Shown: piece after piece, positions 1 to 47,127 of the stretch
Layout of the letters: each line of letters opens with the position of its first letter
How positions within the stretch are numbered: the stretch's first letter is position 1
Source: a virus
IMG/VR virus record: IMGVR_UViG_3300045988_159943
Coordinates: 96,309 to 160,308 of that record
DNA: 64,000 nucleotides
Strand: one strand, 5' to 3'
The notes under the pieces: generated by a model
Databases searched by the model: none
Told to the model about the DNA's origin: nothing
What the model saw: only the letters and a program-made list of their open reading frames with translations
Translations under genes and position numbers: made by a program

Positions 1-1874
1 TTATATTCTTCACTATCAGGGGCATAATTTGACATCATGCTGGTCATAGCCGTGATTCTATTAGTTACTTGTCCAATTTTTGAGCCAAAACCTTTAATGT
101 TACTCTGAATAATATCATCTTCTGTGCAAATCTTCTTCTCTGCATTATATTGAATGCAATTTAGCGCTGGAAGGGGAGTGTGCCTACGTAAGAGCACTGG
201 ATTATTAGTTGTAAATAATAAGTCTCCATCAAAATCAAAACCATTAAGCGCCGCAGCCATGGTATCCCAGGCATTTACAACAACACAAGTGTCTATATAT
301 CTAAACCAATAGGAAGCACCCTCTGAGTAAGAAATATTTTGCGCCACAATAGAGTGTCCATTACTCATTGGGGCTCGAAAGCAAACAACTTTTTCTACAT
401 TTTTGTCTGCCCAATATTTACTATAGATTTCTCCAGCCTTAAGCGCTCCTGTTGCTTCAAGGCCAAACATACTTTGACACAAAGCTACTAAATCTCCAGA
501 TAAAATTTGAAAATTACCACGCACATCCAGTACACCAATTTTAGCATCTTGGATTCTACGGACAATCATTTTTTCAATCTTATGATAAATATGAGGGTCA
601 TTAATTAGATAATTATTCGCCATAAGGGCCTTTACTTCTGGATCTGCATACTTTATATTGTCTTCGTCCAATTTTGAGCCCGCCAAATAGACAATAGCTT
701 TTCTTGGGTCATTAAGTCTAATGTCTAAGATTGCATCTACAGTTGGGCTCACAAGCTCATCTATGTCATTATCTGTTAAGTTACTATATGGTTGTATGAA
801 TTGATAATTTAGCTGCCTAATATCATCAAGTTCATGCTCTGCTGTCTTAGCAACCCTGAATGTATAATGATTTTTTTTACAATTTGCCTCATAATCTTCC
901 CAGCTAGAATAACACTTCCATAGTTTTAACTGCCCCTCGGTCAATATAAGCTCTGCTTCACGAATATCTCTATCCATGCCCCAAACATCTTTGATTATAT
1001 ACGAACCAACGTTTTTTTCAGCCCATTCTATGAAGTCAAAAGTGAATGCCATGCCCTTCGTCCAGGCATTTCTCAAGTTTACTCCACTAATTGTGCGCTC
1101 AAGCTTATCCCCGAGCTCAGTATTCCAACGCCGAGAAAGTGATGGAAGCATCATACCACATCCATCACTAGCATTATTTGAACAATCTGCATCTTTTTCG
1201 AGCTGTACAATTGGTTCTTTAGAAGTATCACTGTCGTCAATATTGATTCTATCGGAAATAAAATGCGTTATAACATCTGGTACAACAATAACTCCATGCG
1301 GCCAACTTACTGGCACAGAAGCGCTAGAGCATAATGCTTCATAGGCTCCGAGCTTTGCAGGCACTAATTTTACGTTTTTATCACGTCCATTATCAATACG
1401 TTCTCTTAATTTGTCTCTTAGACGGGCGCTTATATACTGGATAGTTTGAGTTTTTACTCCATTTGTGGTAGTAAGAAGCCTAAAATATTGAATTCCATTG
1501 ATTTTGAAGCCTTTGTTGGCTCTAATATAGTCGCTAGTTGCCCTGTCCATGATTACAGAGACATAATCTTCTCGAAATTGAATTTTATATAACTTTTCAT
1601 ACAAAGATTTGATTTGTTTTCTCGTTTCATATGTATTTTTTTGCTTTTTGAGCATTTTTATCTCTTTTCGTATCTCTTTTGCCATTTCATCAATATTTTC
1701 AGTACCATTTAACTCATTTATCCACGTTAATATCTGAGAATCTGCTAATGAAATCAACATACCAGTGTCTTTTCTCGCCTCATCTAAAGAGATTGTTAAA
1801 TCCCAATTATACTGCGCGAGAAAATCTGAATGCAATTTGAGGCAATATTGCTGTGTTTTCTGTTGTTTTGCCAT
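1..1874 (-). CDS. DxDGD-motif single-subunit RNA polymerase (YonO-like; beta-prime-like), N-terminal ~620 aa, continues past window start
   Basis: Hand-translated minus-strand ORF from ATG at 1872-1874 (RBS-like upstream) open to position 1. Contains ...AWDTMAAALNGFDFDGDLLFTT... (rc of ~205-270), matching the NADFDGD catalytic loop of msRNAP beta-prime and YonO. Plus-strand ORF 976..1344 inside it is spurious. Confidence 0.5.
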   Translation of the reverse strand, partial: MAKQQKTQQYCLKLHSDFLAQYNWDLTISLDEARKDTGMLISLADSQILTWINELNGTENIDEMAKEIRKEIKMLKKQKNTYETRKQIKSLYEKLYKIQFREDYVSVIMDRATSDYIRANKGFKINGIQYFRLLTTTNGVKTQTIQYISARLRDKLRERIDNGRDKNVKLVPAKLGAYEALCSSASVPVSWPHGVIVVPDVITHFISDRINIDDSDTSKEPIVQLEKDADCSNNASDGCGMMLPSLSRRWNTELGDKLERTISGVNLRNAWTKGMAFTFDFIEWAEKNVGSYIIKDVWGMDRDIREAELILTEGQLKLWKCYSSWEDYEANCKKNHYTFRVAKTAEHELDDIRQLNYQFIQPYSNLTDNDIDELVSPTVDAILDIRLNDPRKAIVYLAGSKLDEDNIKYADPEVKALMANNYLINDPHIYHKIEKMIVRRIQDAKIGVLDVRGNFQILSGDLVALCQSMFGLEATGALKAGEIYSKYWADKNVEKVVCFRAPMSNGHSIVAQNISYSEGASYWFRYIDTCVVVNAWDTMAAALNGFDFDGDLLFTTNNPVLLRRHTPLPALNCIQYNAEKKICTEDDIIQSNIKGFGSKIGQVTNRITAMTSMMSNYAPDSEEY

Positions 1875-1992
1875 ACACATCACCTACTTGTTATCGTTTA
1901 GAAAATTAACTTAATTTTTAATTTTTAATGCTATTTGATAAATTACCTTACTTAAGTAGCAAAAATTAAAAATAGGGCTAAATTTCTAATAC

Positions 1993-2286
1993 TCAAGTCT
2001 CGTTTGAAGAATTTTTTCTTAAGTTCTTCATACGTTCTGCTGCCGCTGCCCTTTGCTCATCTGTCATATTGACTTTTTTAGGAGGGGAGACTTTAAGCCA
2101 AGACTTAGGAATATGGGCTAAAATAATACCTCCGTTTTGCTCAGGAGGGGTTATAATATCTATTTCTTCTGGATACTGTGATTTAAGCTTTAATATTTTG
2201 TTTACCCATTTGCGCTCCCCTGAACAAAATGTCGCATAAGAGTCAACGTTAATATATTCGACGCATGTTTCTATAAAATCTGCCAT
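1993..2286 (-). CDS. hypothetical protein (97 aa)
   Basis: ORF track; GGAGG RBS upstream on minus strand (rc of 2290-2300). Confidence 0.5.
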   Translation of the reverse strand: MADFIETCVEYINVDSYATFCSGERKWVNKILKLKSQYPEEIDIITPPEQNGGIILAHIPKSWLKVSPPKKVNMTDEQRAAAAERMKNLRKNSSNET

Positions 2287-2288
2287 CT

Positions 2289-2834
2289 TTATACCTCCAA
2301 TAATTTTGGATTGTCAATGATATTGTCAATAACTTTAATATCAGAAAAATCCCCATAAGGATCTTGAAGCATTAAACACAAAGTAGAATACTCGACATGA
2401 GGATACTTTCCATTCCAGTAATCATATCCATTAAATTCAATGCCATCAAGAGGAATGGAAGTTAACATGTCCATTTCTTTGCAATACCAAACTAATTCTT
2501 TCTGCCTATACGAATCTGCACGGCCAAACCCAACAATATCATTCTCAAAAATAAGATTACCATGTCTATCAAAATGGTTTGTACTTAAACAGACTGTGGT
2601 AGGATCAACTTCATGCCAGCCATAATCTCTGTATTCTCCCATACAAATATGTTCGCATTCTAAAGAAAAAATGGCGTGTACGATGTCTTTGCCGTGAGAG
2701 TATTCTTCTGGAATGGCAACATAATAGCCATAAACCCATTCCTTTGTATGTATATCTTTTGCCCTACAAATATTTCTGTACAGTGGGGTGCCTTCAAATG
2801 TTCCAAAAATACCATTTTTAGTATTGTCCATCAT
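2289..2834 (-). CDS. hypothetical protein (181 aa)
   Basis: ORF track; RBS cggaggaacaATG on minus strand. Confidence 0.5.
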   Translation of the reverse strand: MMDNTKNGIFGTFEGTPLYRNICRAKDIHTKEWVYGYYVAIPEEYSHGKDIVHAIFSLECEHICMGEYRDYGWHEVDPTTVCLSTNHFDRHGNLIFENDIVGFGRADSYRQKELVWYCKEMDMLTSIPLDGIEFNGYDYWNGKYPHVEYSTLCLMLQDPYGDFSDIKVIDNIIDNPKLLEV

Positions 2835-3001
2835 TGTTCCTCCGAAATTTCATAAGATGCATAATCACCAAGTATTTGTAAAATCTTATTTAAGAATTTT
2901 AGTCTTTGAGTATTGTTCATGCCATAGTACTCATTTGCAAAGCTAGTAGATTCCAATGAATAGATAATATCATCTGCATAAAATCCAAACTCACTACTCA
3001 T
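2831..3001 (-). CDS. hypothetical small protein (56 aa)
   Basis: Hand-translated MSSEFGFYADDIIYSLE...; GGAGGTG RBS (rc of 3003-3015); 4-nt overlap with downstream gene. Confidence 0.35.
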   Translation of the reverse strand: MSSEFGFYADDIIYSLESTSFANEYYGMNNTQRLKFLNKILQILGDYASYEISEEQ

Positions 3002-3023
3002 AATTTACACCTCCAAAACAGTT

Positions 3024-3290
3024 TTAAGGAATATCAATAACCGCAACCCCTAAATATTCAATATCTTCTTGTCCTTCGTACCAATCGTTAAACCACATAA
3101 TATCATCTGCATTGTACAGACTACAGCATTCAACTAAGTATTCCCATTTTATTTCATGTGAATATTTACATCTTAGATAAACTAAAAAGCAACTTGCAGA
3201 TGTATTAGACCATATTCTTTTAAGCAATGAATCCTCAGAGTTGTCTAATAGTGGTTCAAAATTAATTTTTGGCATTTTCAAATTGTCCAT
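3024..3290 (-). CDS. hypothetical protein (88 aa)
   Basis: ORF track; RBS GGAGGTG on minus strand. Confidence 0.45.
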   Translation of the reverse strand: MDNLKMPKINFEPLLDNSEDSLLKRIWSNTSASCFLVYLRCKYSHEIKWEYLVECCSLYNADDIMWFNDWYEGQEDIEYLGVAVIDIP

Positions 3291-3292
3291 AA

Positions 3293-3709
3293 TTACACCT
3301 CCAACACTTCATCTGATGCATAAAAAGTAACCCACTTGTCACGGTTGGCTTCGGCTTGTTCTTTGGTACGGTAGCAGTTGCCGAGCTTGTAGTAATTTAA
3401 ATGGTCAGACCCAAATTCACTACTGAAAACAGAATCATATACATCTCCAGTCTCAATTACGAAGAAAAAACTATCACCATCTTCTGGCTTCCAAGGCTTG
3501 CGTTTGATAATGAAATCACCATAGATAAGATGTGTCAAAAGATATTCACCAGAACAAGCTCTGCCTTCTGCGTCAATTTCTATATCTTTATCAGTAAAAT
3601 AGTAATTAAACTCACTAATAGGTTTATTTGAACCAACATCAACAATTTTAAATCTTTTACCAAGCTCAACTCCGAGCATCTTTGCGACTTCTTCCATATA
3701 GTTTGCCAT
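3293..3709 (-). CDS. hypothetical protein (138 aa)
   Basis: ORF track; RBS GAGGAGG on minus strand. Confidence 0.5.
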   Translation of the reverse strand: MANYMEEVAKMLGVELGKRFKIVDVGSNKPISEFNYYFTDKDIEIDAEGRACSGEYLLTHLIYGDFIIKRKPWKPEDGDSFFFVIETGDVYDSVFSSEFGSDHLNYYKLGNCYRTKEQAEANRDKWVTFYASDEVLEV

Positions 3710-3710
3710 T

Positions 3711-4031
3711 TTAATTTACCTCCTCATTGTCTGAACTAAAACTACAAATTCCAAATTTTGTGTTTAGCAACTCATCTATGGATATATCAAACCATTCTGC
3801 AATTTCTTTTAATGTAGCTGGACGGCTGATTGTGAGAGTTGTATCTCCATTATCTTCTACAAACACCTCATTCTCAAACACGACTTTAATTGGTTTATTT
3901 GTAGTTGGGATAATATATAAACAATCAATAAATTTAGATTTATCCTCGAATAAATCACAAGTTTTATAAAGACAATCTCCAAAAGCGCCCAGGCATACAT
4001 CATAGTGAATGCAATCTTCACATATATTCAT
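3711..4031 (-). CDS. hypothetical Cys-rich protein (106 aa; start trimmed to MNICEDCIHYD)
   Basis: ORF track ORF 3711..4079; internal ATG at 4029-4031 has GGAGGAC RBS and overlaps stop of upstream gene (TAATG). Confidence 0.45.
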   Translation of the reverse strand: MNICEDCIHYDVCLGAFGDCLYKTCDLFEDKSKFIDCLYIIPTTNKPIKVVFENEVFVEDNGDTTLTISRPATLKEIAEWFDISIDELLNTKFGICSFSSDNEEVN

Positions 4032-4237
4032 TAAAAGTCCTCCTCGTCTGGCTCTTCTAGCTCCATTCCCAAAATGCATCCAACTTCATATGCCGCCCAG
4101 CTCGTACCCGACATATAGCCATCATCAAAGCAATCATATGAATTTCCTTCTGAGCGCTCCCATGTGTATCCTGTAGCACGTTGGTTGTAGTTATGTTTAA
4201 CCCATTGCTCAAGTTCTTCTCTGATTTTGTTGTTCAT
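4031..4237 (-). CDS. hypothetical protein (68 aa)
   Basis: ORF track; RBS GGAGG (rc of 4245-4250). Confidence 0.45.
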   Translation of the reverse strand: MNNKIREELEQWVKHNYNQRATGYTWERSEGNSYDCFDDGYMSGTSWAAYEVGCILGMELEEPDEEDF

Positions 4238-4253
4238 TTAAAACTTCCTCCAA

Positions 4254-4742
4254 TTAGTCTTTTACAATATATCCAAACGGCACATTGCCATCTACAATAG
4301 ACCTCCAATGAGAGATTACAAATGAGCTAGTATATTCACCATTATATTTTTCAAGATTTTTCTCTGCTGCTCTCTGTAAAGACTCAAAAGTATCTTTAGA
4401 GATAGTTTTCTCAAAACTATCAGCGTACTGTGGATAAAGCATATTATCATAATTTACAATCTTCATTCCACATTCATTGGTAGGGAATGACCAATCTCTA
4501 ATAAAATCCCACATCGTGCAACCTGCCTGAAAGCCAGTAATACCAAATTCAGAAGATAAATACCATGCCGTTGCTAGTGCGGCTTGGGCAATTGCTCTTG
4601 GTGCCGTGCCATAACCAGTATTACAAGTATTCTTCACTCGTTCTAAAAAAGATACAAGGTCATCAAAAGATTCGATGTTTTTGCGTTCATTTTCTAGTTG
4701 GGCCTTTACCTCAAATTCTCTGCTTTCAGTTTCGATATACAT
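4254..4742 (-). CDS. hypothetical protein (162 aa)
   Basis: ORF track; RBS AGGGAGGAA on minus strand. Confidence 0.5.
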   Translation of the reverse strand: MYIETESREFEVKAQLENERKNIESFDDLVSFLERVKNTCNTGYGTAPRAIAQAALATAWYLSSEFGITGFQAGCTMWDFIRDWSFPTNECGMKIVNYDNMLYPQYADSFEKTISKDTFESLQRAAEKNLEKYNGEYTSSFVISHWRSIVDGNVPFGYIVKD

Positions 4743-4756
4743 AATTTATTCCTCCC

Positions 4757-4993
4757 TTAGTTCACAACACAAATTTTCTCAAAGTCTTCTTCCTTATATT
4801 CAATATCTCTGGAAGAATAGATATCTCTATATTTGTCCATATAATAAAGACTAGGCTCATAATAGACTTCATGGTAGTCGTTTCCCTCATCATCTACGGC
4901 ATAATAGCAATCTAAATCTCCATGTTGGGACATGAAAGATTGTAAGTTTTCAATCATTTGTGAAATTTTCATTTGGTTGCGCCTCCTTATCAA
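4757..4993 (-). CDS. hypothetical protein (78 aa)
   Basis: ORF track; RBS AGGAGG (rc of 4998-5004). Confidence 0.45.
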   Translation of the reverse strand: MIRRRNQMKISQMIENLQSFMSQHGDLDCYYAVDDEGNDYHEVYYEPSLYYMDKYRDIYSSRDIEYKEEDFEKICVVN

Positions 4994-5049
4994 ACATAGA
5001 AAATCCAGATTGGGTTTACATCTATGCCTTTGATATTTAACTTCTTTCT

Positions 5050-5169
5050 AATGCGCTTGTGTCTTTTAACATCCTTTGGATGATATCTTCCGAGCGCATC
5101 TTTATATCCTTTTTTGATACCATAGAATGCATCATAGGTTGGAGAGTAAACTTGTTCATTTAGTATTCC
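5050..5169 (-). CDS. hypothetical small protein (39 aa)
   Basis: Hand-translated MNKFTLQPMMHSMVSKKDIKMRSEDIIQRM...; GGAGGAA RBS (rc of 5172-5180). Confidence 0.3.
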
Positions 5170-5172
5170 TCC

Positions 5173-5487
5173 TTAACCACACTCACATTCAGAAAATGTA
5201 ATCTCATACAAAGCTTGTGGCCCCATAGGAAGATCTCCAATATAATCATCTCCACAATACACATATGCAGTGTCTGGTAGATAACAAATATCAGGCTGAT
5301 TTAGTTTGCCGCACCATTCTTTAAAAGCTTTATAGTCAGCCTCGTCAATTACTCGCTGGATTTCATTTCGCATGTCAGGGGGCATCATGTGATGGTACCA
5401 GTAATAGATAATGCTGATTTCTCTGTCAGCAATATTTGTATCTAGAATTAGAGGTGGGTGCATAGATAAAAATTCTCGTAATGTCAT
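5173..5487 (-). CDS. hypothetical protein (104 aa)
   Basis: ORF track; RBS AAGGAGAATATATTCTATG on minus strand. Confidence 0.5.
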   Translation of the reverse strand: MTLREFLSMHPPLILDTNIADREISIIYYWYHHMMPPDMRNEIQRVIDEADYKAFKEWCGKLNQPDICYLPDTAYVYCGDDYIGDLPMGPQALYEITFSECECG

Positions 5488-5499
5488 AGAATATATTCT

Positions 5500-5630
5500 C
5501 CTTAATAAATAATTTTGTATTGTATATTATATTATAAATATATATAAATATTTAATTACTCTATAGTTTATATATATCCCTTATATATTTATATATAATA
5601 TATATAATTAATATAGGCTCCAGGCCGCCG
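5500..5630. repeat. AT-rich block (TATATA-type tracts) followed by a GC clamp ggctccaggccgccgggcc; origin-like
   Basis: Direct reading: >85% AT over ~100 nt with reiterated tatatat/ttatat units, then a short GC-rich palindromic segment. Confidence 0.4.
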
Positions 5631-5737
5631 GGCCAAGAAAAAGCGTTAGCGTCAAGAAAATAAAATTTAATTTGAGCCGCAAGGCGAAAATTAAATTAGA
5701 GCGTTGTTTTGGCCGTAGGACAAAATAATGCGGGATA

Positions 5738-5770
5738 GTTATCTTATAGTTATCTTATAGTTATCTTATG
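5738..5770. repeat. 3 tandem copies of 11-bp iteron AGTTATCTTAT
   Basis: agttatcttatagttatcttatagttatcttatg read directly. Confidence 0.8.
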
Positions 5771-5785
5771 TACTCCTATTTTGAT

Positions 5786-5850
5786 ATAGTACCCTACTAT
5801 AGTTTTTATATAGGGGGGTACTATATAGTTTTTATAGTGGGGACTCTATA
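5786..5850. repeat. 2-3 copies of ~20-bp repeat (c)TACTATAGTTTTTATA(g/t)(g/t)GGGG
   Basis: ccctactatagtttttatatagggggg / tactatatagtttttatagtgggg read directly. Confidence 0.7.
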
Positions 5851-6164
5851 AATAGGTAGGAGTTTGGATCTTCAGAGAAGTCATTTTTGATGAGATAGCC
5901 CTTTTGTTTAAGTTCTCGCTTTGCGGCAAAATAGGCTTGTTCAGACATGTGTACTTTAGAAATTGCATCTTGTTTACTGAGATAGAAGTCTTCTTGGATT
6001 TCTTGGAAGCTGCCTAAGTAGATGTAAAGTTTGAGGGCATTTTTGCTTAGGGTGTTTGTTGCGTTAAAGAGAGCGTCTTTGTTATAGATGCCAAATTTGT
6101 TGTTTTGGTTTCTTGGTACGCTCTGGAATATGATGTGATTTTGGTTGGTAAATAGTTTTGCCAT
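5832..6164 (-). CDS. putative replication initiator / replisome-organiser-like DNA-binding protein (110 aa from MAKLFTNQ...)
   Basis: ORF track ORF 5832..6260 trimmed to ATG with GGAG RBS. LSKNALKLYIYLGSF... weakly resembles phage replisome organiser/DnaD N-terminal region; lies beside iterons. Confidence 0.35.
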   Translation of the reverse strand: MAKLFTNQNHIIFQSVPRNQNNKFGIYNKDALFNATNTLSKNALKLYIYLGSFQEIQEDFYLSKQDAISKVHMSEQAYFAAKRELKQKGYLIKNDFSEDPNSYLFIESPL

Positions 6165-6558
6165 AGTTGTTTTGCTCCTTGTAGTGTAATAATTTTGTAC
6201 TGTAGGAATTATAACATAGTTGAGAAGTATTGTCAATATATGTGGTGGGATTTTATGCAATGTTTTGTTGGTAATATTTAGAGTGAGGGAGATAAATGAT
6301 AGGTATTTTTGTGGAAAAGTTATAATTTAATGATAAGAAATTGTTGTTGTTTTACGATGATTTATTTTAAAAGTGAGATTTTTTAAAGAAGGAGAGGTGG
6401 ATTTAAAATGAATTGTTATATTTTATGGCATGAATTAATGATTGATTTTTATTATAAATGAGCATTCTGTGTGGAAACAATGTAATTTTTAAAAGGGTGT
6501 AATAAGGGGGATTTTTCAGTCAGTGTGTGAAAAAAACACCCTATAGTCTAACCAAATA

Positions 6559-6583
6559 AACCACAACATATTGTGGTTTTTTC
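6559..6583 (+). terminator. intrinsic terminator-like hairpin (aaccacaa-cata-ttgtggtt + T6)
   Basis: 8-bp perfect stem, 4-nt loop, TTTTTT tail. Confidence 0.5.
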
Positions 6584-6679
6584 TACCCCAATACACTATA
6601 TATTGTGGGTTATTCAATAATTCAAACAAATACATATTTGTTTTACTTTTCCCTAGGATGTGGTATTATATGGGTGTCC

Positions 6680-7300
6680 CAGGGGACAGGACATAAAACA
6701 AAGCCCCAACCCGAGGAATCGGGTGTTAGCTTTGGGAACAAAGCGAAAACTGTATTACAACAGTAATACAGTTGTACCTTCCACCAGGATGAAAAGTAAA
6801 TAATATGTCACTGCCGGGATATAGCTATGACCATAGGAGGGGTCTGTCCAAAAATGGAAAGCTATCGGTTGATAGGGAAACAACTATCAATATCTCCCAT
6901 TACGATTGACGGGGGCAGTATAAACATACCCAATATGCTATCCTGGGGCCTAATCTACCCTTGGATAAGTGGGGCCAGGACATAGGGGGCACTCTATGTG
7001 CTACGTCTATGCCTGTAATGTCCGTGCAAAAGCCCATTTCAAACCACTGGATGCGCAGAGTATCCTTTGGGGGTATGCACGTCAAGGCCCACGTCGTGAC
7101 ACCCTTGGGGGATACTATCTCCCAGGGATTAACAACGGCAATGAGCCGTGGGCGACAAAAGCCATAGACATAACCATGCGTATTAGATTTGCATGGTTGG
7201 GTGGTATGTCACCAATGTGTACATACCGTTTTGGTAGGTGTGGGTGTGCTATGGCTAGTAGAACATAATAACTAGAGCTATCGTGTGTATACATGGTAGC
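6680..7300 (+). ncRNA. candidate large structured non-coding RNA (~620 nt), ends at intrinsic terminator
   Basis: ~650-nt island (6640-7310) with higher GC than flanks, no ORF with RBS (three overlapping track ORFs look spurious). Many perfect 7-9 bp hairpins (6751-6772, 6869-6895, 7173-7200, 7209-7233). Possible -35/-10 (ttgttt...tattat ~6640-6672). Terminator at 7273-7310. Boundaries approximate. Confidence 0.35.
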
Positions 7301-7310
7301 TCTTTTTGTT
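7273..7310 (+). terminator. intrinsic terminator (tagagcta...tagctct + TTTTTGTT)
   Basis: 7-8 bp stem, loop cgtgtgtatacatgg, T-rich tail. Confidence 0.6.
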
Positions 7311-7349
7311 GTGTGCTACTATCAGGGTATAGCAATAGGAGGTAATACT

Positions 7350-7583
7350 ATGTTATTAGCAAGCACTCAATTATTTGATATGTGCAATAATTGGATGTAC
7401 CACAACATGGATTGTGTTGATTGGGACATGCTAGCATATTGCTACATCAACAAACACTACTCTTATGATGAAACCATTGACGATGATGGTAATGTACTTG
7501 ATAGCTTTCAAGTTATCACTGTGCATGACCTGCAAAATGCCTGTGATGAAGTAGGCATTGATATTGACTGCATCAATTTTTAA
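7350..7583 (+). CDS. hypothetical protein (77 aa from MLLASTQ)
   Basis: ORF track 7293..7583; AGGAGG RBS 7 nt before ATG at 7350. Confidence 0.4.
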   Translation: MLLASTQLFDMCNNWMYHNMDCVDWDMLAYCYINKHYSYDETIDDDGNVLDSFQVITVHDLQNACDEVGIDIDCINF

Positions 7584-7680
7584 CAACACGCCTATGCCCT
7601 GATAGTAGTGCATAACTACACCAAAATTAGGGTGATGACCTATCATCAGATTGGGCAAAATGCCCAAATAGGAGGAAATT

Positions 7681-8397
7681 ATGAACGCTACCACTACCAT
7701 GAACGAGTACGCAAACGCCATCACTGACAACCGTTGGATGGCTAAGGCACAGTTGGATGCCGACAACATGGGAACCACCACCTGGAAGCAGTATACCCAG
7801 TTGTGCGACAACATCGCCATCGCTTCCTGGGACAAGCTCACTGGACGCAAGGGCGATGACGATACCCTGGCAAAGTCCCTTATCGGCCTCTTTGCCTTCT
7901 TCGGTTGTGATGCCCGTCCCACCGTGGACATGCAGAACCGTTTCCTGCTCTCCTGCGTGACCGTCAAGAGGATGCAGTCCGAAGCCATGAGACAGGCTCG
8001 GAAGAATCTGCGCAGTGCCAAAAACCTGCTCGAAGAGGCCCAGGAATCCATTCCCCTGGATGAAAAGGCCGTGGAAATCTACCAGAACAAGGTCAAGGAG
8101 TACGAAGCAACCGTCACTCGTATGGAGTCCGAGCCTAAGAATGTCTGGTATGACAAGATTCCCATGCTCTCTGCCGACTATAGCCACGCATCCAAGAAGT
8201 GCCGTAAGCTCATCGAGGATGAGATGGCCGATGTCCTGGCCGAGCGTGGACTGATGACCATCGAGGAGAAGTTGGCCGAGAGACAGAGACTGGATGACGA
8301 ACGTGATGGTCGTAACCGTCGCAAGAAGAAGGAAGCCCAGGCCAAGAAGCAGGAAGAGTCCAAGGCCGAGAGCAACAATGCGCCCGAATCCAAGTAA
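7681..8397 (+). CDS. hypothetical protein with KE-rich C-terminal tail (238 aa); GC-rich island
   Basis: ORF track; RBS AGGAGGAAATTATG; ~55% GC. Minus-strand ORFs 7431..8051, 7627..8400, 8178..8498 are GC-driven spurious ORFs. Confidence 0.6.
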   Translation: MNATTTMNEYANAITDNRWMAKAQLDADNMGTTTWKQYTQLCDNIAIASWDKLTGRKGDDDTLAKSLIGLFAFFGCDARPTVDMQNRFLLSCVTVKRMQSEAMRQARKNLRSAKNLLEEAQESIPLDEKAVEIYQNKVKEYEATVTRMESEPKNVWYDKIPMLSADYSHASKKCRKLIEDEMADVLAERGLMTIEEKLAERQRLDDERDGRNRRKKKEAQAKKQEESKAESNNAPESK

Positions 8398-8398
8398 C

Positions 8399-8413
8399 AC
8401 AGTACAAAATTAT
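8399..8413 (+). promoter_or_regulatory. variant copy of conserved leader motif (ACAGTACAAAATTATcgg)
   Basis: Immediately after stop of 7681..8397; followed by weak GC hairpin. Confidence 0.4.
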
Positions 8414-8533
8414 CGGGGGTAGACTCACTCTGCCCCTTTCCTCTCCAAGTAGAACTCCTTGCCGTGGGGGAGAGGCCCGAACCGTAACAGGTCGCCAAGT
8501 TCTACAATAAAAATCTAACAGGAGAAATAACCA

Positions 8534-8691
8534 TGTTCTATCTCGCTCTCGTCGGCATCATCTGTGCCCTTCTCGCCTTGGGGGACTATGCAATCTCCCT
8601 GTTCTTCTATGCCCTCTATCTCTATGATGGGGGGCATCATTCTTTCCGGTGGTATCGTAACTTTATGAGCAACACCACCATTGAATGGTAA
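8534..8691 (+). CDS. small hydrophobic membrane protein (52 aa) MFYLALVGIICALLALG...
   Basis: Hand-translated; RBS AGGAGAAATAACCATG; below ORF-track size cut-off. Minus-strand ORF 8515..8748 rejected. Confidence 0.4.
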
Positions 8692-8769
8692 CGTTGCGTA
8701 GGGCTTTTTAGCATAAAGTTGAAAGGCCTTATGGAGTGTTACCAACAACTCCAGAAAGGATGTTAGCGC

Positions 8770-9219
8770 ATGAAATCTATTCTCTTAGCCCTTGCACTAC
8801 TCTCTAGCGTCGGGGGGCAAATCGCCAGTCCTATGGCCCTTATCAACCACTTCGAGAACGACAACATTGCCGTGATTGAAGTATATGACCATGGGCAAAT
8901 CTATGAGGGCGCTGTGCCCCTCGACCAAATGCCGGGGAGAATCTTAAGCATTGGAACAAACATCCCTGTCCATTCCATCGCTGCCCAATGCACAACTCCC
9001 GTTTTTGACATAGACGGAAACATCTACTTCCGCTTTGACGGAAACGAGGAAACCTGGACACTTTCTGATGATGAATTGGGAATCATCCCGGAAAAGGGAA
9101 TGTATTATACCCTGTACGTCTCAGACAACGGAACCACATCTTGCACCCACGGAAATGATTGCGAATGTTATATCTATGACGACTTCTTTATCTGCCTAGG
9201 GGACGCAATCCCTTGGTAA
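8770..9219 (+). CDS. secreted hypothetical protein (149 aa; signal peptide MKSILLALALLSSVGG)
   Basis: ORF track; RBS GAAAGGATG...; N-terminal hydrophobic signal-like segment. Confidence 0.55.
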   Translation: MKSILLALALLSSVGGQIASPMALINHFENDNIAVIEVYDHGQIYEGAVPLDQMPGRILSIGTNIPVHSIAAQCTTPVFDIDGNIYFRFDGNEETWTLSDDELGIIPEKGMYYTLYVSDNGTTSCTHGNDCECYIYDDFFICLGDAIPW

Positions 9220-9302
9220 ATAGCATTGCTAGAGTCCACAAGGGAAACTTTGTGGGCTTTATGGAGTGTTATCCACCAAGACAACCGAAAGGAGAATAAT
9301 CT

Positions 9303-9584
9303 ATGAACGAAATCTATCGTGGTGCTTTGGTCTTTGCCAAGAAAGGGAATCTCAAGTCCTTCTATGAATCCAAACTCGTGAAGGCCGGCCCCTATGCCCT
9401 TGCGGAAAGGGAAATCCAGTGCGTCGTACTCTTTCGTTGGGACAAGAACAACCTTTTCTGTCGCATCAAGTGTCCTGAAAACCCTCTTCCCATCAAGGGA
9501 GAATTTCAGGCACCTTCCCTGAAAGTAATCGCGCAATGGTTCATTAATAATGAATGGAAGTTCAAGGCAAAAATCCCTCTCTGA
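9303..9584 (+). CDS. hypothetical protein (93 aa)
   Basis: ORF track; RBS AAAGGAGAATAATCTATG. Confidence 0.5.
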   Translation: MNEIYRGALVFAKKGNLKSFYESKLVKAGPYALAEREIQCVVLFRWDKNNLFCRIKCPENPLPIKGEFQAPSLKVIAQWFINNEWKFKAKIPL

Positions 9585-9835
9585 GTGTTGTTGCGTGTCT
9601 GCAAGTATCCCCCTGCTTGCAGGCACAACTAGAGCATTTAGAAAGGCAAATGTGGCAACGTAAATTTCCAAGAGAAATCTTTGGACGTTGTTTTTGGCCT
9701 AAGCCAATCAAATGCTTGACAACTGAATATGATGAACAAGTAAGCAAAACCTAAACCAAAGGCCATAAGGCAAGGTTGATTTGTGGCCTTTAGTGAAGGC
9801 TTCGCGCCAAATTTATAACAGAAAGGAAAATCGCT

Positions 9836-10075
9836 ATGTTCGGAAATGATCCTAGCACCGCTATCACCACCATCGTCGCAGACACTAACGGAAACCACTG
9901 GTATGTAGATTCTCGACTTACCTTTGACCATGGCCTTGAAACCATGGTTTTCCCTTGTGACAGCAACGGAAACGTGACCTCTTGGATTGATCGCTACGCC
10001 GAGTGGCACAATGATGTCAATCAGATGCGTGAGCGTCATACAGAAATCGTTTCCCACATCGAAAAGTACATCTAA
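9836..10075 (+). CDS. hypothetical protein (79 aa)
   Basis: ORF track; RBS GAAAGGAAAATCGCTATG. Confidence 0.5.
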   Translation: MFGNDPSTAITTIVADTNGNHWYVDSRLTFDHGLETMVFPCDSNGNVTSWIDRYAEWHNDVNQMRERHTEIVSHIEKYI

Positions 10076-10092
10076 GCGAAAGGAGTATCGCA

Positions 10093-10386
10093 ATGAACCT
10101 CTACTATAAGCTCAAGACTGGTCTTTGGACTCGTCGTTACAATCTCGAGAGTGCATTTGAGATTTGCACGGGAAAGAGATACTACGGCAACGAAAGGGAA
10201 TTTCTGCGCTGGTTGCACTCTCTTCTCGGAAAAAGCATCATTGCTGCCAAGAGAAGCGATGATCCCACTTTGGTGGACGAGCTTCTTGCAAACGGCCAGA
10301 ATGTTTTGGCTTGCGCAGCCTACCGTGATTGCCGCGGCTGCACTCTCACAGAAGCAAAGAAGGCGATTGAAAACAGAAAGGAGTAA
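10093..10386 (+). CDS. hypothetical protein (97 aa)
   Basis: ORF track; RBS AAAGGAGTATCGCAATG. Confidence 0.5.
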   Translation: MNLYYKLKTGLWTRRYNLESAFEICTGKRYYGNEREFLRWLHSLLGKSIIAAKRSDDPTLVDELLANGQNVLACAAYRDCRGCTLTEAKKAIENRKE

Positions 10387-10511
10387 GGCAAATGGAAATC
10401 ATCCTTGGATTATTCATCTCGGCAATCATCATCTACATCTGTGACTAAGCATCCCAACACCAACCAAAGACAAAATAAGCCACAAAACGTGGCAGAAAAG
10501 GAGATATTACT

Positions 10512-10976
10512 ATGAATACCAACATCATGACTATCGGGAGCATCGCCAACATCATTGCTTATGGAAACCACAACAACAGTCACTGCAAGGCAGTTCTTGC
10601 AGTAGAACCTCGGCTTGCTTTCACCTCTATGACTGATTTGGCCGAGCATTTTGGAGTGGCCCAGGGTAATGTATCTTTTGCCGTCAAGACTGGTGGTACC
10701 ATCAAGGGAGTTCACGTTGTGCTCCTCTCCGACACCAACAAGGCAATGGAAATCATTATGGCCCAGGCTCACAAGGAACGTGAAGCCCAGGAAGAAGCCC
10801 GTCGCAAGGAAGAGAGACGGCTGGCTAAGATTGAGAAGGAAAAGCAGAAGCGTAATGCTCTCATCGCTCGTACCAAGGAGCGTATCGAAAAGCATGAAGC
10901 TAAGGTAACAAAGGAAACTGAAATCATTGCCTCCCTCAAGGAAGAACTGGCCAAGCTCGAAAGCGAAGCTAAATAA
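10512..10976 (+). CDS. hypothetical protein with KE-rich coiled-coil C-terminus (154 aa)
   Basis: ORF track; RBS AAAGGAGATATTACTATG. Minus-strand ORF 10410..11048 is spurious. Confidence 0.55.
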   Translation: MNTNIMTIGSIANIIAYGNHNNSHCKAVLAVEPRLAFTSMTDLAEHFGVAQGNVSFAVKTGGTIKGVHVVLLSDTNKAMEIIMAQAHKEREAQEEARRKEERRLAKIEKEKQKRNALIARTKERIEKHEAKVTKETEIIASLKEELAKLESEAK

Positions 10977-10998
10977 CAACTGAAAGGAGATAAAACCT

Positions 10999-11109
10999 AT
11001 GAAAACAGCATTCAAAATCCTTCTGCACCTGTTCCTGACCATTGCCACCTACGGAGTTTGGTTGATTATCCTTCTCATTTGGTTCTTGGTCAAGGGAATC
11101 GAAAAGTAA
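10999..11109 (+). CDS. small membrane protein (36 aa)
   Basis: Hand-translated MKTAFKILLHLFLTIATYGVWLIILLIWFLVKGIEK; RBS AAAGGAGATAAAACCTATG. Confidence 0.35.
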   Translation: MKTAFKILLHLFLTIATYGVWLIILLIWFLVKGIEK

Positions 11110-11203
11110 TTTTAGCGCTGTTTGGGAGCACAGAGTTCTTTCCCCCTGCTCTGTGCTCCTTAGAGAGTGCTAAACTCAATAAGCCCAAAAGGAGCAAGAC
11201 AAA

Positions 11204-11338
11204 ATGGAAAATATTTATCCGTGTGATGAACTTGGCATCTGTCCCTTCAACGCAGAAGGAGGCAATGATTGCTACAACTATTGCGGGCTTGGAGCAGACG
11301 AAAGCAAACCTGAAAATTATTCCGAAGAGGAGTAAATT
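11204..11338 (+). CDS. small Cys-rich protein (44 aa)
   Basis: Hand-translated MENIYPCDELGICPFNAEGGNDCYNYCG...; RBS AAAGGAGCAAGACAAAATG. Confidence 0.3.
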
Positions 11339-11368
11339 ATGCTATAATATTCAAAGGGGTGATGCTTT

Positions 11369-11599
11369 ATGGATACAGACATAAAGGAAACGCTTGATAC
11401 AATCTTACAAACAATGTCAAGCATGGACAAAAAGCTCGACGCAAAGTTCGGAGCAATGGAAACAAAAATAAGCTCAATGGAATCCAAAATTAACGCAATG
11501 GCAGAAGATGTTCATGACACAAAGCTAACCGTAGATGTTATCTCTGCGGTACTAGAACGACAAGGCAAAGACATAAGCAAACTCAAAATTATAAAATAG
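11369..11599 (+). CDS. hypothetical coiled-coil protein (76 aa)
   Basis: ORF track. Confidence 0.45.
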   Translation: MDTDIKETLDTILQTMSSMDKKLDAKFGAMETKISSMESKINAMAEDVHDTKLTVDVISAVLERQGKDISKLKIIK

Positions 11600-11609
11600 C
11601 CTTTTAAGG

Positions 11610-11640
11610 GAACCGTGTAAATCATGGTTCTCTTTTTTGT
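11610..11640 (+). terminator. intrinsic terminator (gaaccgtg-taaat-catggttc + TCTTTTTTGT)
   Basis: 8-bp stem with one G-U pair, 5-nt loop, T-run; closes the GC-rich cassette. Confidence 0.65.
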
Positions 11641-11741
11641 TTGCAGAAAAGGAGTTAATCATGAACAATACAACACAGGAATATCAAACTTGGGATCACA
11701 CCTTCAGCGCCCAATTGAGAGAAGGTAAGAGGTAAAATAAA

Positions 11742-11912
11742 ATGGGAATCGTGCTAATCGTAATCGGAATCATTTGGATAATTGGAAGCCTTGTTACGAA
11801 ACCAAACAACCTTGCCGCTGCATTTTTATTCAAGGTAATTCCATTTATAACCGCAGCTATCGTTACAATCATTGGCTTCTACTACTCTGGAATCATCACA
11901 ATTTCTATCTGA
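11742..11912 (+). CDS. small membrane protein (56 aa)
   Basis: Hand-translated MGIVLIVIGIIWIIGSLVTKPNNLAAAFLFKVIPFITAAIV...; RBS-like AAGAGG upstream; preceded by a 24-aa ORF at 11661. Confidence 0.4.
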   Translation: MGIVLIVIGIIWIIGSLVTKPNNLAAAFLFKVIPFITAAIVTIIGFYYSGIITISI

Positions 11913-11984
11913 GGTATAGCACTAAAAGAAAATAAAGGGGGTGGTGACATATGATTTAATTTAATTCAACACAATCAACCACCG

Positions 11985-12001
11985 ACAGTACAAAATTATT
12001 G
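11985..12001 (+). promoter_or_regulatory. conserved leader motif ACAGTACAAAATTATTG
   Basis: Exact 17-mer, 31 nt upstream of ATG 12033. Confidence 0.5.
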
Positions 12002-26552: not shown

Positions 26553-26977
26553 TGCAAGAAGGATATTTTGTTTATAACAATATAAAATACCCAACAGGAA
26601 CTGTCGTTGCAATTAAAGAAATTTATCAACATAAAATCCGAATGGCAACATTCATTTACCATGACACCAACAGAGACACTTATGTTTTTAAATATAGAGA
26701 TAATGGCCAACAATGGATTGTGAGTTCAAAAGATTTCTTTAATAATTTACAATATGTTACGGATAAATTTGATTCAAGTGCAAAAATTCCACAAAGAAAA
26801 CAACTAAAAGATAGGCACATCAATTCATTGATAATTGGATGGGTTTGGTACATATTCCTTATGGCTATATTCTCAATTTTCAATGGTAGATTTGCAGCTT
26901 GGATTATATTATCGGTTTGTTTCTTTAAATGGAGAAAAAATAAAATTGAAAAGGAAGGTTATTATGTCGAACGGTAG
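26552..26977 (+). CDS. hypothetical protein with C-terminal TM segment (141 aa)
   Basis: ORF track; TAATG overlap with upstream gene. Confidence 0.5.
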   Translation: MQEGYFVYNNIKYPTGTVVAIKEIYQHKIRMATFIYHDTNRDTYVFKYRDNGQQWIVSSKDFFNNLQYVTDKFDSSAKIPQRKQLKDRHINSLIIGWVWYIFLMAIFSIFNGRFAAWIILSVCFFKWRKNKIEKEGYYVER

Positions 26978-27944
26978 ATATGAAAAAGAATTAAGATTTG
27001 AAAATAGAACGAAGGAAAAATTAAAAACAATGCCACCTATTATAACTGATTATTATTATCACCTTGTTGGTGGAGGTAGTTCTTTTACAACTGTAGACAA
27101 TTATATTAATTATATTAACTCTTTTTTGAAATTTACATTTAAAAGATGTCGTGATGATTTTTACTTAAGTGTAAGACCATTACATATTAATAAATATATT
27201 GCATCTCTTAGAACTAAAGTTGTTAATGGACAAGTGCAAAGAACATCTGATAGTATTAAAGCTCTTCATTGGTCTGCACTCAATTCTTTCTTTCAATTTT
27301 TAGTTCCAGATTACATTAAAGAAAATCCGGTTGCTGCAACAAAACGTCCTCGTATTAAAGATAATCCAAATGTTACCTATTTAACACAAGAAGAAATTGC
27401 AGCAATAATGAATAATGTAAAAGAAAATGCAAATCCTAAAATGAAAAATAGAGATCTATGTATTTTAAAACTTGGATTTAGCACTGGACTTCGTGTTTCT
27501 GCAATTGTACAAATTGATTTAGACGATATTGATCTTGTGCATAACCAAATTCGTGTCACTGAAAAGGGAGACGTTGATCATTATGTTTTAATTGGAGAAA
27601 ATCTCAAAGAACAAATTAAATTATGGATTAAAGATAGAAATGAGTATTTTAGTGATGTAATTACCAATGCATTATTTGTTTCTCAAAAGAAAAGAAGACT
27701 TAGTACTGATTCTATTGGAAAATTAATAGCTAAATATACAGAAAATATTACTGATAAGCATGTTACTCCACACGTAATGAGACATTCTTGCGCAACAAAT
27801 CTTTATTCTCAGACTGGAGACATTTATCTGTGCGCTAGCCAATTAAATCATAAAAATATTGCTACTACACAAAGGTATGCAGAGATTTCTAAGGCAAGAC
27901 AGAAAGAAGCTGCAACATTACTTGATAATTTAATTGACAAATAA
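26964..27944 (+). CDS. tyrosine recombinase / phage integrase family protein (326 aa from MSNGRYEK)
   Basis: ORF 26835..27944 trimmed to ATG after AAAAGGAAGGTTATTATG. C-terminal catalytic signature GLRVSA (R), HVMRHSCAT (HxxR), TQRYAEIS (Tyr). Confidence 0.75.
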   Translation: MSNGRYEKELRFENRTKEKLKTMPPIITDYYYHLVGGGSSFTTVDNYINYINSFLKFTFKRCRDDFYLSVRPLHINKYIASLRTKVVNGQVQRTSDSIKALHWSALNSFFQFLVPDYIKENPVAATKRPRIKDNPNVTYLTQEEIAAIMNNVKENANPKMKNRDLCILKLGFSTGLRVSAIVQIDLDDIDLVHNQIRVTEKGDVDHYVLIGENLKEQIKLWIKDRNEYFSDVITNALFVSQKKRRLSTDSIGKLIAKYTENITDKHVTPHVMRHSCATNLYSQTGDIYLCASQLNHKNIATTQRYAEISKARQKEAATLLDNLIDK

Positions 27945-28000
27945 TAATCTTGTACTGTATTATGGGTATATATAAAAATTACCCCACAAGGAGCGGTCAT

Positions 28001-28924
28001 ATGTATAATGAGGAGGTAAAATCTGACTTTATAAAAGATTACATGAGAAGTAGAGTGGTTGCATTCACATCACTAACGGGCTTATTTAACAAAACTGAAG
28101 AATATGAATGTAAACTTAAAAAAGATTGTAGTCAATTTACCAAAGAAGAAATATTAAATATGTACAAAAATTTCAAAGCAAAATCTCTAAGTGTTTTGGA
28201 AAATTATAATGTGCATTTAAAAAGATACACGGCGTATAGATTACACAAAAAGCAGATTAACACTGATAATTCGTACAGTGAATTAACAAAAGACATGATA
28301 AAAGAATGCCTTGATCCAGAAATACAGGAACAGCTTTATGTTACTAGAGAGGAATTAGATGATATTGAAAATGAATTATTTAATTATACAGACAAAGCTA
28401 TCGTCGAAGCTCTATGGAACGGAATTAGCGGCAAAAGTATGTGTGATTTAGTATCTTTAAATGAAGATATGATAAGTCCAAATAAAGACAGTATAATATT
28501 TCCAGATGGAAGAATTATTGACATTGATCAAAAACTTGCTAGATTTTTAGAAAAAGCTTTTCGTGAAACAGAATACATTTGCTATGGAGAAACTTTAAAG
28601 GTTGAGAAAGTAGAAGGTCAAGGCTCTTTATATAAAGCAAGATCAAATGCATATGCGCAAATGACAGAAGATGTTCGTTTCCGTTGGGTGTATAGAAAGA
28701 TACAGAATTATAGAAAGTATCTGGATATACCACTACTTACAATGAAAAATATTCAGGCATCTGGGCTCTTGCATAAGCTTCAAACTGAGATGAAAAAAAA
28801 TAATTGCTCAATGAGAGAAGTGCTTGCAACAGAAAAAGGCAAGAAAATAGCAGTCCAATATGGCTATAAGCCAAATCATTACATTGATGTTATTATAGAT
28901 AAATTTAATGGGTACCAGGAGTAG
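28001..28924 (+). CDS. hypothetical protein (307 aa from MYNEEVKS)
   Basis: ORF 27950..28924 trimmed to ATG after AAGGAGCGGTCATATG. Confidence 0.45.
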   Translation: MYNEEVKSDFIKDYMRSRVVAFTSLTGLFNKTEEYECKLKKDCSQFTKEEILNMYKNFKAKSLSVLENYNVHLKRYTAYRLHKKQINTDNSYSELTKDMIKECLDPEIQEQLYVTREELDDIENELFNYTDKAIVEALWNGISGKSMCDLVSLNEDMISPNKDSIIFPDGRIIDIDQKLARFLEKAFRETEYICYGETLKVEKVEGQGSLYKARSNAYAQMTEDVRFRWVYRKIQNYRKYLDIPLLTMKNIQASGLLHKLQTEMKKNNCSMREVLATEKGKKIAVQYGYKPNHYIDVIIDKFNGYQE

Positions 28925-45801: not shown

Positions 45802-45887
45802 GCCGGGATGGTGGAAATGGTAGACACCTGGGACTTAAAATCCCATGGGCTTGACCCGTGCCAGTTCGAGTCTGGTTCCCGGCACCA
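45802..45887 (+). tRNA. tRNA-Leu (anticodon TAA), CCA encoded
   Basis: Manual fold: acceptor gccggga/tcccggc, anticodon stem tggga/tccca, loop cttaaaa, long variable arm, T-loop ttcgagt. Confidence 0.7.
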
Positions 45888-45995
45888 AGCTGAGTTGACC
45901 TTTAGTATTTTGCAAACGCAGGCTGATATGCGGTAGGAAAAATACAGAGCCTTGGAAAAGTTTAAAAGAGAACACCTCTTTCTGAGGCTTTATAT

Positions 45996-46080: not shown

Positions 46081-46128
46081 TTTCCCCCTTATATAGAATC
46101 CTGGGTAAGATTTAAAACTGCCTGATAT

Positions 46129-46204: not shown

Positions 46205-46205
46205 T

Positions 46206-46283: not shown

Positions 46284-46286
46284 AAT

Positions 46287-47107: not shown

Positions 47108-47127
47108 TTTTTAAGGAGGTACAAAAA

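Follow-up and report, generated by a model that had tools for sequence, protein, structure and literature searches.

In phage SPbeta, YonO is a processive DNA-dependent RNA polymerase (RNAP) with a strong preference for DNA templates, and 37 late genes remain silent without it; transcription by this enzyme starts at one site upstream of yonK (PMC5467207). The master repressor of the same phage, MrpR (YopR), was shown by chromatin affinity purification sequencing (ChAP-seq) and electrophoretic mobility shift assays to bind SPBRE, a 15-bp motif found in ~10 promoter regions (PMC10516654). The homologue in phi3T, SroF, recognizes in monomeric form an AT-rich, asymmetric box of 26 bp (CAGTAATTTTATTTTTATTCTTAATG), which occurs at multiple sites genome-wide (bioRxiv 10.1101/2025.11.27.690993). 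Here, we analyzed 64,000 nucleotides of the IMG/VR virus record IMGVR_UViG_3300045988_159943 (positions 96,309 to 160,308; this whole stretch is hereafter called the window), which contain most of a YonO-like polymerase gene, a gene for a homologue of MrpR and SroF, and 28 copies of a 17-nt motif. An earlier note on this DNA had suggested that the polymerase might explain the motif. The explanation that we favor, with a probability of roughly 0.7 for the whole, is that the polymerase belongs to the YonO family and serves late transcription, and that the motif is the operator of the repressor. The virus itself is probably a large, SPbeta-related, temperate phage of gut Firmicutes.

A YonO-family RNA polymerase gene at the left edge of the window

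The reverse complement of positions 1-1874 is free of stop codons over 624 codons. This open reading frame (ORF) begins with an ATG at 1874 (MAKQQK...), which has a GGTGA Shine-Dalgarno (SD) sequence 5 nt on its 5' side, and is open at the left window edge. Translation confirmed what the earlier note had described, i.e., a minus-strand ORF starting at 1874, running off the window and containing AAALNGFDFDGDLLF; the latter corresponds to aa 541-555, and the DFDGD codons within it occupy positions 222-236 (minus strand). The ORF is a real gene rather than a chance ORF, because a search of metagenome proteins identified full-length relatives (917-935 aa, 60-96% identity) and because an exhaustive search against 50%-identity cluster representatives gave 1,656 matches at E≤1e-3, 459 of them at E≤1e-30. 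One full-length relative of 918 aa (P0001) shares 601 of the 624 residues of the window protein (96%). By this comparison, the window holds about the N-terminal 68% of a polymerase of ~918 aa, with the remaining ~294 aa past the left edge; the missing third is the helical C-terminal region.

It is almost certain that this ORF (1-1874, minus strand) encodes a single-chain two-barrel RNAP of the YonO family, as the earlier note had recognized from the catalytic loop (DxDGD). In Pfam-A, one match exceeded the curated cut-off, namely RdRP (PF05183; 33.9 bits vs 23.8, E 1.9e-8, aa 107-610), and two PHROG families of unknown function were matched, PHROG 25339 at E 5e-161. BLASTP against SPbeta YonO gave 27% identity over 510 aa (E 8e-35), with GFDFDGD of the window opposite QFDNDGD and the Asp triads in register. 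The loop had been said to be shared with YonO; this holds for the triad, although SPbeta YonO reads FDNDGD and not DFDGD. In GenBank phages, tblastn detected polymerase homologues in 41 records, the best being Clostridium phage c-st and six Enterocloster phages (~40% identity), followed by Bacillus phage BUCT082 (32%) and then SPbeta-like phages (27-28%, E ~1e-29). Several of the SPbeta-like records are labelled 'yonO: DNA-directed RNA polymerase', and other phage records 'RdRP'.

Comparison with solved structures required profile and fold searches, as phmmer with the polymerase fragment against PDB sequences returned chance matches only. In the profile search against the PDB, SDGCG...LRNAWTKG of the window was aligned with SDGIG...QIRYGGYKG of RDR2/QDE-1, and DFDGD with DLDGD of RDR2. 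The fold was assessed on an AlphaFold2 model of the full-length P0001, and not of the truncated window protein (mean predicted local distance difference test score 92.3, predicted template modelling (TM) score 0.87). Foldseek searches of the PDB with this model retrieved RDR2 (E 1.7e-17) and QDE-1 (~1e-15), both with a probability of 1.00, over alignments of 870-950 columns and with TM scores of 0.4-0.5. Thus, the comparison with RNAP, YonO and QDE-1 profiles or folds that the earlier note had proposed gave matches to RDR2 and QDE-1 at E values from 1e-17 to 1e-15, while the largest subunits of multi-subunit RNAPs appeared only at E ~0.1. In BFVD, the best Foldseek matches were phage proteins named 'RNA-dependent RNA polymerase' (E 6e-43), and crAss-like proteins ranked lower.

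Residue conservation was examined in an alignment of 66 sequences reaching down to 26% identity. Residues K174, Y178, D237, G238, K273, G274, K317, Y357, Q358, R500, P502, D547, D549, D551, G601 and N605 were invariant, as were four further residues past the window (R630, I642, D643 and K646); R268 was conserved in at least 90% of the sequences. Eight residues are invariant in all two-barrel RNAPs, which in Qde1 are D709, R738, K743, R962, P964, D1007, D1009 and D1011 (PMC2919709). All of them were found in the window protein with matching spacing, as D237, R268, K273, R500, P502, D547, D549 and D551; for example, the gap from R500/P502 to the triad is 47 aa, compared with 45 aa from R962/P964 to D1007 in Qde1 (PMC2919709). 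The triad D547-F-D549-G-D551 (222-236, minus strand) is the catalytic Mg-binding site of the beta-prime-like barrel according to the alignment, YonO, RDR2 and Qde1, and it is essential for catalysis by YonO (PMC5467207). The invariant Arg and Pro of the same barrel (R500-A-P502) lie at 369-377 (minus strand). Both barrels are present in the window, the beta-like one at about aa 190-320 and the beta-prime-like one at about aa 450-556. The beta-like barrel had been expected in the part outside the window; instead, its signature (D237-G238...R268...K273-G274, the SDGxG...R...KG block aligned with RDR2/QDE-1 and with Qde1 D709/R738/K743) is N-terminal to the DFDGD barrel, at approximately 1056-1166 (minus strand).

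Two known kinds of polymerase come closest to this enzyme. With QDE-1 and RDR2, which are eukaryotic cellular RNA-dependent RNA polymerases (RdRPs) of PF05183, it shares the overall fold and three signature blocks including SDGxG...R...KG and DxDGD, but the sequence identity is only 12-14%, those enzymes act in eukaryotic silencing whereas this one is encoded by a double-stranded DNA (dsDNA) phage, and its expected template is DNA by analogy with YonO. With SPbeta YonO it shares homology over ~500 aa, the aligned triads and the same eight two-barrel residues; on the other hand, YonO has 839 aa and a DNDGD loop, as against ~918 aa and DFDGD here, and the two are 27% identical. As in YonO, DNA-dependent RNA synthesis would be expected.

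Many YonO homologues have been called as split genes that end at positions equivalent to query aa ~547-558 (at or just past the DFDGD loop) or ~640-666. In Clostridium phage c-st (L014 18136-22069), the yonO gene lies in three coding sequences with a gap of ~370 nt after the catalytic loop, and this interruption had no match to an intron family in Rfam. The gene in the window is uninterrupted through aa 624.

Occurrence and genomic context of the polymerase family

YonO-type enzymes are already known and very common, with more than 1,600 clusters, many of them on phage contigs of 100-170 kb. Homologues with 38-60% identity were found on contigs of 100-165 kb binned into metagenome-assembled genomes (MAGs) and in isolate chromosomes (Paenibacillus spp. 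and Hominimerdicola aceti); the contig scan used an alignment of 14 sequences, and P0001 as the sole query found nothing. Because homologues are located inside chromosomes and MAG contigs, the family is common in prophages, including those of Clostridia and Paenibacillus. Megablast of positions 1-25000 against GenBank phages gave no match, so no close sequenced relative was found there at the DNA level. The window polymerase is an ordinary member of a known family, and its lineage has no cultured representatives.

The order of genes past the polymerase could be read in L025, the closest relative (90% nucleotide identity to the window), and in two other loci (L011 and L012). Downstream of the polymerase, they share a gene for a ~295-aa protein (accompanied by ClpP and PhoH in some), a small gene and an HU-like gene, followed by YonJ_N, a small gene, and YonG_N ... 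YonD_N. This corresponds to the order yonO-yonN(HU)-yonK-yonJ...yonG...yonD in the late cluster of SPbeta. The likeness extends to the small ORF upstream of the polymerase and to the HU-like gene followed by YonJ, YonG and YonD in the close relatives. The differences are the extra gene (plus ClpP/PhoH in some) between the polymerase and HU-like genes of these relatives, and the 1.7-kb non-coding gap between yonN and yonK of SPbeta, which has no counterpart here. Considering homology and synteny together, the window polymerase quite probably transcribes structural and other late genes located just past the left edge.

Within the window, the polymerase gene comes last among the visible genes of a leftward string (from 6260 down to 1), one of which belongs to the YopX family. 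At the head of this string is a perfect sigma-70-type promoter, TTGACA-17-TATAAT preceded by TG (6208-6236, minus strand; the only 12/12 match in 1-9000), from which the operon is presumably transcribed. Directly upstream of the polymerase is a 97-aa ORF (1993-2286, minus strand), in the place that yonP occupies before yonO in SPbeta.

A 17-nt motif associated with host-type promoters

The consensus of the recurrent motif is ACARTACAAAATTATTR. The window contains 28 matches with up to three mismatches, against 0.65 expected, and none of 100 shuffled sequences reached this number. Its edges are sharp at 17 bp, and the flanks are not conserved. The strand of the motif follows the direction of the genes, with minus-strand copies at 2314, 5523 and 6203 and plus-strand copies from 8399 to 63207; the one exception is at 27958. 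The 24 plus-strand copies start at 8399, 11985, 16483, 20981, 23584, 24535, 26254, 29377, 29643, 30768, 34989, 40136, 43371, 44419, 44557, 45781, 49875, 49915, 51877, 52950, 56933, 59860, 60686 and 63207. Almost all of these lie between genes and run in gene direction. The distance from the end of a copy to a start codon is mostly 11-43 nt, and the previous stop codon is often in contact with the copy.

A considerable part of the copies is tied to host-type promoters in fixed registers. Among 53 promoter-like sites, 14 carry the motif at -32, -2, +8 or +11/+12 relative to the start site. All five perfect promoters of the form TTGACA-16/17-TATAAT (44386, 44511, 45734 and 60640 on the plus strand and 6236 on the minus strand) bear a copy, which begins at -2 or +11/+12 of the expected start site. 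At 26251, 49872 and 51874, the -35 hexamer ends in the ACA of the motif, which thereby takes up the spacer, and the copy at 34989 has the same arrangement; at 16497 and 23598, the terminal TTG of the motif begins the -35 hexamer. In total, 17-19 of the 28 copies are promoter-linked, compared with ~1 by chance as estimated from the density of promoter-like sites.

Three copies belong to the leftward polymerase operon. One (6187-6203, minus strand) is at about +1 of the operon promoter, 4 nt past the -10 box, which is an operator position. Another (5507-5523, minus strand) lies 19 nt before the start of an ORF at 5173-5487. The third, ACAATCCAAAATTATTG (2298-2314, minus strand), ends 11 nt before the start of the 97-aa ORF and is the counterpart of the SPBRE copy before yonP-yonO.

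The motif is kept at orthologous places in relatives whose polymerases are 71% and 62% identical, among them the sites immediately before the polymerase gene and behind the YonJ-like gene; in the 62% relative it reads ACAATACAAAATTATAG. It stands directly before the yonO-type gene in L011 (2920) and L017 (9966). The exact 17-mer was found at 10 loci in IMG/VR, several of which are unrelated single chance matches, while three (L003, L004 and L008) come from relatives in which the copies are multiple or linked to promoters. More distant YonO phages, namely SPbeta, Goe12, c-st (40 kb searched) and PMBT24 (100 kb searched), yielded nothing beyond noise-level matches with four mismatches.

An MrpR-family repressor and its putative operator

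A plus-strand gene at 28001-28924 encodes a 307-aa integrase-fold homologue of the repressors MrpR/YopR and SroF. The mechanically called ORF starts with a TTG at 27950, and the ATG at 28001 is the probable real start. Pfam matches were MrpR_N_CB (PF22822, 48.5 bits) and MrpR_C_cat (PF22823, 28.5 bits; cut-off 27 for both), the latter spanning only aa 130-173 of the Pfam model. Among PDB sequences, the protein matched SroF of phi3T on DNA (9rd5, E 1.8e-16), YopR (8bj6, E 2e-12) and MrpR (8a0a, E 6e-12), and tblastn retrieved the corresponding genes of SPbeta-like phages, the identity to phage homologues being ~25%. Directly upstream is a tyrosine-recombinase gene (26835-27944, plus strand; Phage_integrase PF00589, E 1.3e-33), an arrangement that recalls yopP...yopR of SPbeta.

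The repressor gene is preceded by a promoter-like sequence, TTGACA-18-TATTAT (27934-27963, plus strand), and the sole inverted motif copy (27942-27958, minus strand) occupies its spacer. In a relative with a 68% identical repressor (L026), the same inverted copy follows TTGACA before the repressor gene. An inverted copy in its own promoter is what an autoregulated repressor gene looks like.

Taken together, these observations make it more likely than not that the 17-nt motif is an asymmetric operator of the repressor encoded at 28001-28924, and not a promoter of the polymerase. By analogy with its homologues, the repressor would bind the 17-bp site as a monomer, and it would sit at many places, mostly at host-type promoters, in the spacer, at +1 or at about +12. 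Such binding could silence the prophage, including the polymerase operon, and control the repressor gene too. After induction, the host RNAP would transcribe the repressed operons and the YonO-type enzyme would be made, which in turn would transcribe the late cluster left of the window. Motif and polymerase would then be connected through regulation, with the polymerase gene controlled by the motif.

As such, the polymerase adds little, and the correction of its proposed link to the motif is the useful result. The window appears to hold a whole SPbeta-style circuit, i.e., a master repressor, a multi-copy operator and a YonO-type polymerase under their control. If confirmed, this would extend the MrpR/SroF-SPBRE system well beyond Bacillus, to a distant lineage of gut phages with a much denser operator network, and would give the search for the YonO promoter a second system.

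Comparison with SPBRE and the phi3T box

For comparison, SPBRE was re-derived from 50-100 kb of SPbeta as (CAAAT)ACAAAAAATATGTATATAA, i.e., ~19 bp plus the CAAAT flank. Nine good copies were found, before yonP, yonT, yonX (two), aimR, yopM, yopV and yorE, and a weaker one stands immediately before yonO. Each of the nine has the orientation of the gene downstream of it and ends 0-35 nt ahead of the SD sequence of that gene; some lie inside promoter spacers and some near +1. In our own comparison, SPBRE with the CAAAT flank and the window motif have AATACAAAA in common, and nine of the first 10 nt of the phi3T box correspond to the reverse complement of the window motif (CAATAATTTT vs CAGTAATTTT).

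The window motif and SPBRE are thus alike in being AT-rich, non-palindromic, co-oriented with genes, just upstream of SD sequences and located in spacers or near +1. Both have a copy before the small ORF that precedes the polymerase gene, and in both phages the repressor gene stands beside a tyrosine-recombinase gene (yopP...yopR in SPbeta). The sequences are partially similar (AATACAAAA with SPBRE and CARTAATTTT with the phi3T box). Because members of the MrpR/SroF family bind asymmetric sites as monomers, the strandedness of the motif would be accounted for. On the other hand, 17 bp are conserved here, compared with 15 bp in the published SPBRE and 26 bp in the phi3T box, and about one third of the window copies without a promoter, as well as copies in the late region of relatives, have no reported equivalent in SPbeta.

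Other phages were examined for comparable elements. Enterocloster phage PMBT24 encodes a homologue of YonO, but the tblastn matches of the repressor (E≤1e-3) included no Enterocloster phage, and a dominant SD-proximal motif is absent from PMBT24. A repeat in PMBT24, TCAATTCGTAAAGTAAAA, was considered and set aside, as its six copies are on both strands and it is unrelated to the window motif. Geobacillus virus E3 (L024) has an MrpR-like gene in a yopP-x-yopR-like arrangement and gave no YonO match. Its 11-mer TAAAATATAAT occurs in 10 copies, all co-directional with genes, but it contains a -10 box, could not be distinguished from ordinary promoters and was not used. In Bacillus phage Goe12 (L013 3316-4836, minus strand), an oriented repeat, CTGAATAAAACAG, is present in four copies between small genes, in the position from stop codon to SD. 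It is distinct from SPBRE and similar to part of the SroF box of phi3T in reverse complement (GAATAAAAATAAAA); this repeat may represent the operator type of the Goe12 repressor.

Alternative explanations

Several points weigh against the explanation proposed here. About nine of the 28 copies (8399, 11985, 20981, 24535, 29643, 30768, 40136, 52950 and 59860) have no recognizable -35/-10 boxes, and they are often wedged between a stop codon and the next SD sequence, with no obvious promoter to repress. Relatives bear copies inside the late region, and 28 copies per 64 kb are several-fold denser than SPBRE in SPbeta (~10 per 134 kb). These promoter-less copies, the late-region copies of relatives and the high density are poorly explained by an operator. 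Silencing of the roadblock type, weak promoters that escaped recognition, or a second function are possible. As for the polymerase, its template preference and targets are taken over from SPbeta YonO at 27% identity, and the window includes neither the late genes nor the last third of the protein.

The earlier note had reasoned that a polymerase of this kind, acting at promoters other than sigma-70 ones, could explain why many copies lack -35/-10 boxes. The boxless copies do exist, but about two thirds of the copies are linked to promoters. As a promoter of the YonO-like polymerase, the motif (or its boxless part) would have transcription starting within it or just after it, as T7-type enzymes do at promoters of 17-23 bp. 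Promoters of phage RNAPs (T7-type ones of 23 bp, and those of the N4, phiKZ/AR9 and crAss-like two-barrel enzymes) are likewise short, conserved, strand-specific, intergenic and multi-copy and accompany an RNAP of the phage's own; the motif is contiguous, sharply bounded and present about once per 2.3 kb, and the sequence of the YonO promoter is not known (PMC5467207), which leaves room for such an assignment, as do the late-region copies of relatives. However, host-type promoters hold two thirds of the copies in fixed registers, including the spacer, which would not be expected for the promoter of a second polymerase, and a conserved copy is inverted inside the repressor promoter. The motif stands before early genes, late genes and the polymerase gene, and most of the genes that bear it are of the early or replication type, a class independent of YonO in SPbeta (PMC5467207). 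SPbeta YonO has a single start site in a region without a repeated element; this region, which we placed by means of primers in the supplement of Forrest et al., contained no SPBRE and nothing like the window motif. PMBT24 bears YonO and has no such motif, and at many copies the SD sequence follows at once, leaving no room for a start site. As a class, therefore, the copies do not behave as elements that precede late genes independently of host promoters, and only a minority are boxless. With 17-19 copies on sigma-70-type promoters and an MrpR-family gene in the window, we regard it as unlikely that the motif is the promoter of this polymerase; we do not disfavor the idea more strongly because of the ~9 copies without recognizable boxes. 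A mixed situation, in which the boxless copies and those in the late region of relatives are YonO-type start sites and the same 17-mer serves as both operator and promoter, is slightly less probable still, but it would provide the first promoter consensus for any enzyme of the YonO family.

A role of the motif in RNA, as an intercistronic or 5'-leader element such as an endoribonuclease processing site or a translation or stability element before the SD sequence, appears comparably improbable. Such a role would agree with the presence of 27 of 28 copies on the sense strand, with their usual distance of 11-43 nt from start codons, with the frequent contact with the previous stop codon (one copy ends 4 nt before the first tRNA) and with the RNA-repair enzymes encoded in the window. 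However, the copies that form the -35 box or spacer (26254, 34989, 49875 and 51877) are upstream of the start site and thus outside that transcript, and the conserved copy in the repressor promoter is antisense. We also considered the motif as a hairpin and rejected it, since 11 of the 28 copies have A or T at position 17, the partner that C2 would need; an Rfam scan of the window revealed tRNAs only and no family at the motif. Moreover, SPBRE, which is equally oriented and SD-proximal, is a demonstrated DNA-binding site (PMC10516654). Finally, the polymerase could be read as an RdRP and not as a DNA-dependent transcriptase, given the name of its Pfam family, its best structural matches (eukaryotic RDR2 and QDE-1) and the label 'RNA-dependent RNA polymerase' of its relatives. 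These names, however, go back to the eukaryotic enzymes on which the family was founded, and YonO, the sole characterized member from bacteria or phages, is a processive DNA-dependent enzyme that strongly prefers DNA and is needed for late transcription (PMC5467207); in addition, this is a dsDNA phage, in whose close relatives the gene heads a YonO-type late cluster. This alternative is very improbable, the least probable of those considered. An operator bound by the repressor remains our preferred reading of the motif.

A conserved block next to the polymerase genes of relatives

In relatives, yonO is followed by one gene and then by a gap, in which we identified a single-copy conserved non-coding block, AAAAWWnCAyCTACTATGATAG(A/G)AG (the CTACTATGATAG block), ~45 nt beyond a copy of the motif. 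In the phage studied here, it would fall just past the left edge of the window. The block is located at ~4575-4600 in L025, ~6655-6680 in L011, ~6120-6145 in L012, 13729 in L017 and 376 in L027; it is duplicated in L022 (13723 and 13915) and absent elsewhere in the loci searched. This block is a candidate for the late (possibly YonO-type) promoter.

In the promoter region of SPbeta YonO, a weakly similar sequence, AAACAATATCTACT, was noticed. The yonN-yonK gap that holds the YonO start site (L023 9152-10834, minus strand; 1.7 kb) is non-coding and, by eye, less AT-rich than its surroundings. The only Rfam match within it was a DUF3800-VIII RNA at 9409-9474.

Other genes and sequence features

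The remaining part of the window (plus strand, 8.4-64 kb) is devoted to non-structural functions, including a C5 DNA methylase, the tyrosine recombinase, an AAA_24 ATPase, a DnaB-like helicase, a primase-like protein, a dCMP deaminase, a phosphoesterase, 17 tRNAs, an Rnl1-type RNA ligase and a kinase/HD phosphatase. G+C content is higher at ~8000-12000 (0.43-0.48, compared with ~0.35 elsewhere), where leftward genes give way to rightward ones; the ORFs tested in this region had no Pfam match.

The 17 tRNA genes predicted by ARAGORN form a cluster at 45802-49682 (plus strand), which also contains a weak tRNA-like Rfam match at 46483-46544. A perfect promoter and a motif copy, the one ending 4 nt before the first tRNA, precede this cluster. 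Downstream of the tRNAs (57304-60635, plus strand), we found the Rnl1-like RNA ligase, a weak RlaP-like match and the kinase/HD phosphatase. Further downstream, a gene at 60718-63114 (plus strand) encodes a 798-aa protein with a Major Vault Protein shoulder domain and Vault_3 repeats (Pfam E 2e-19 and 5e-11), an unusual finding in a phage; a perfect sigma-70-type promoter that carries the motif at +12 stands before this gene.

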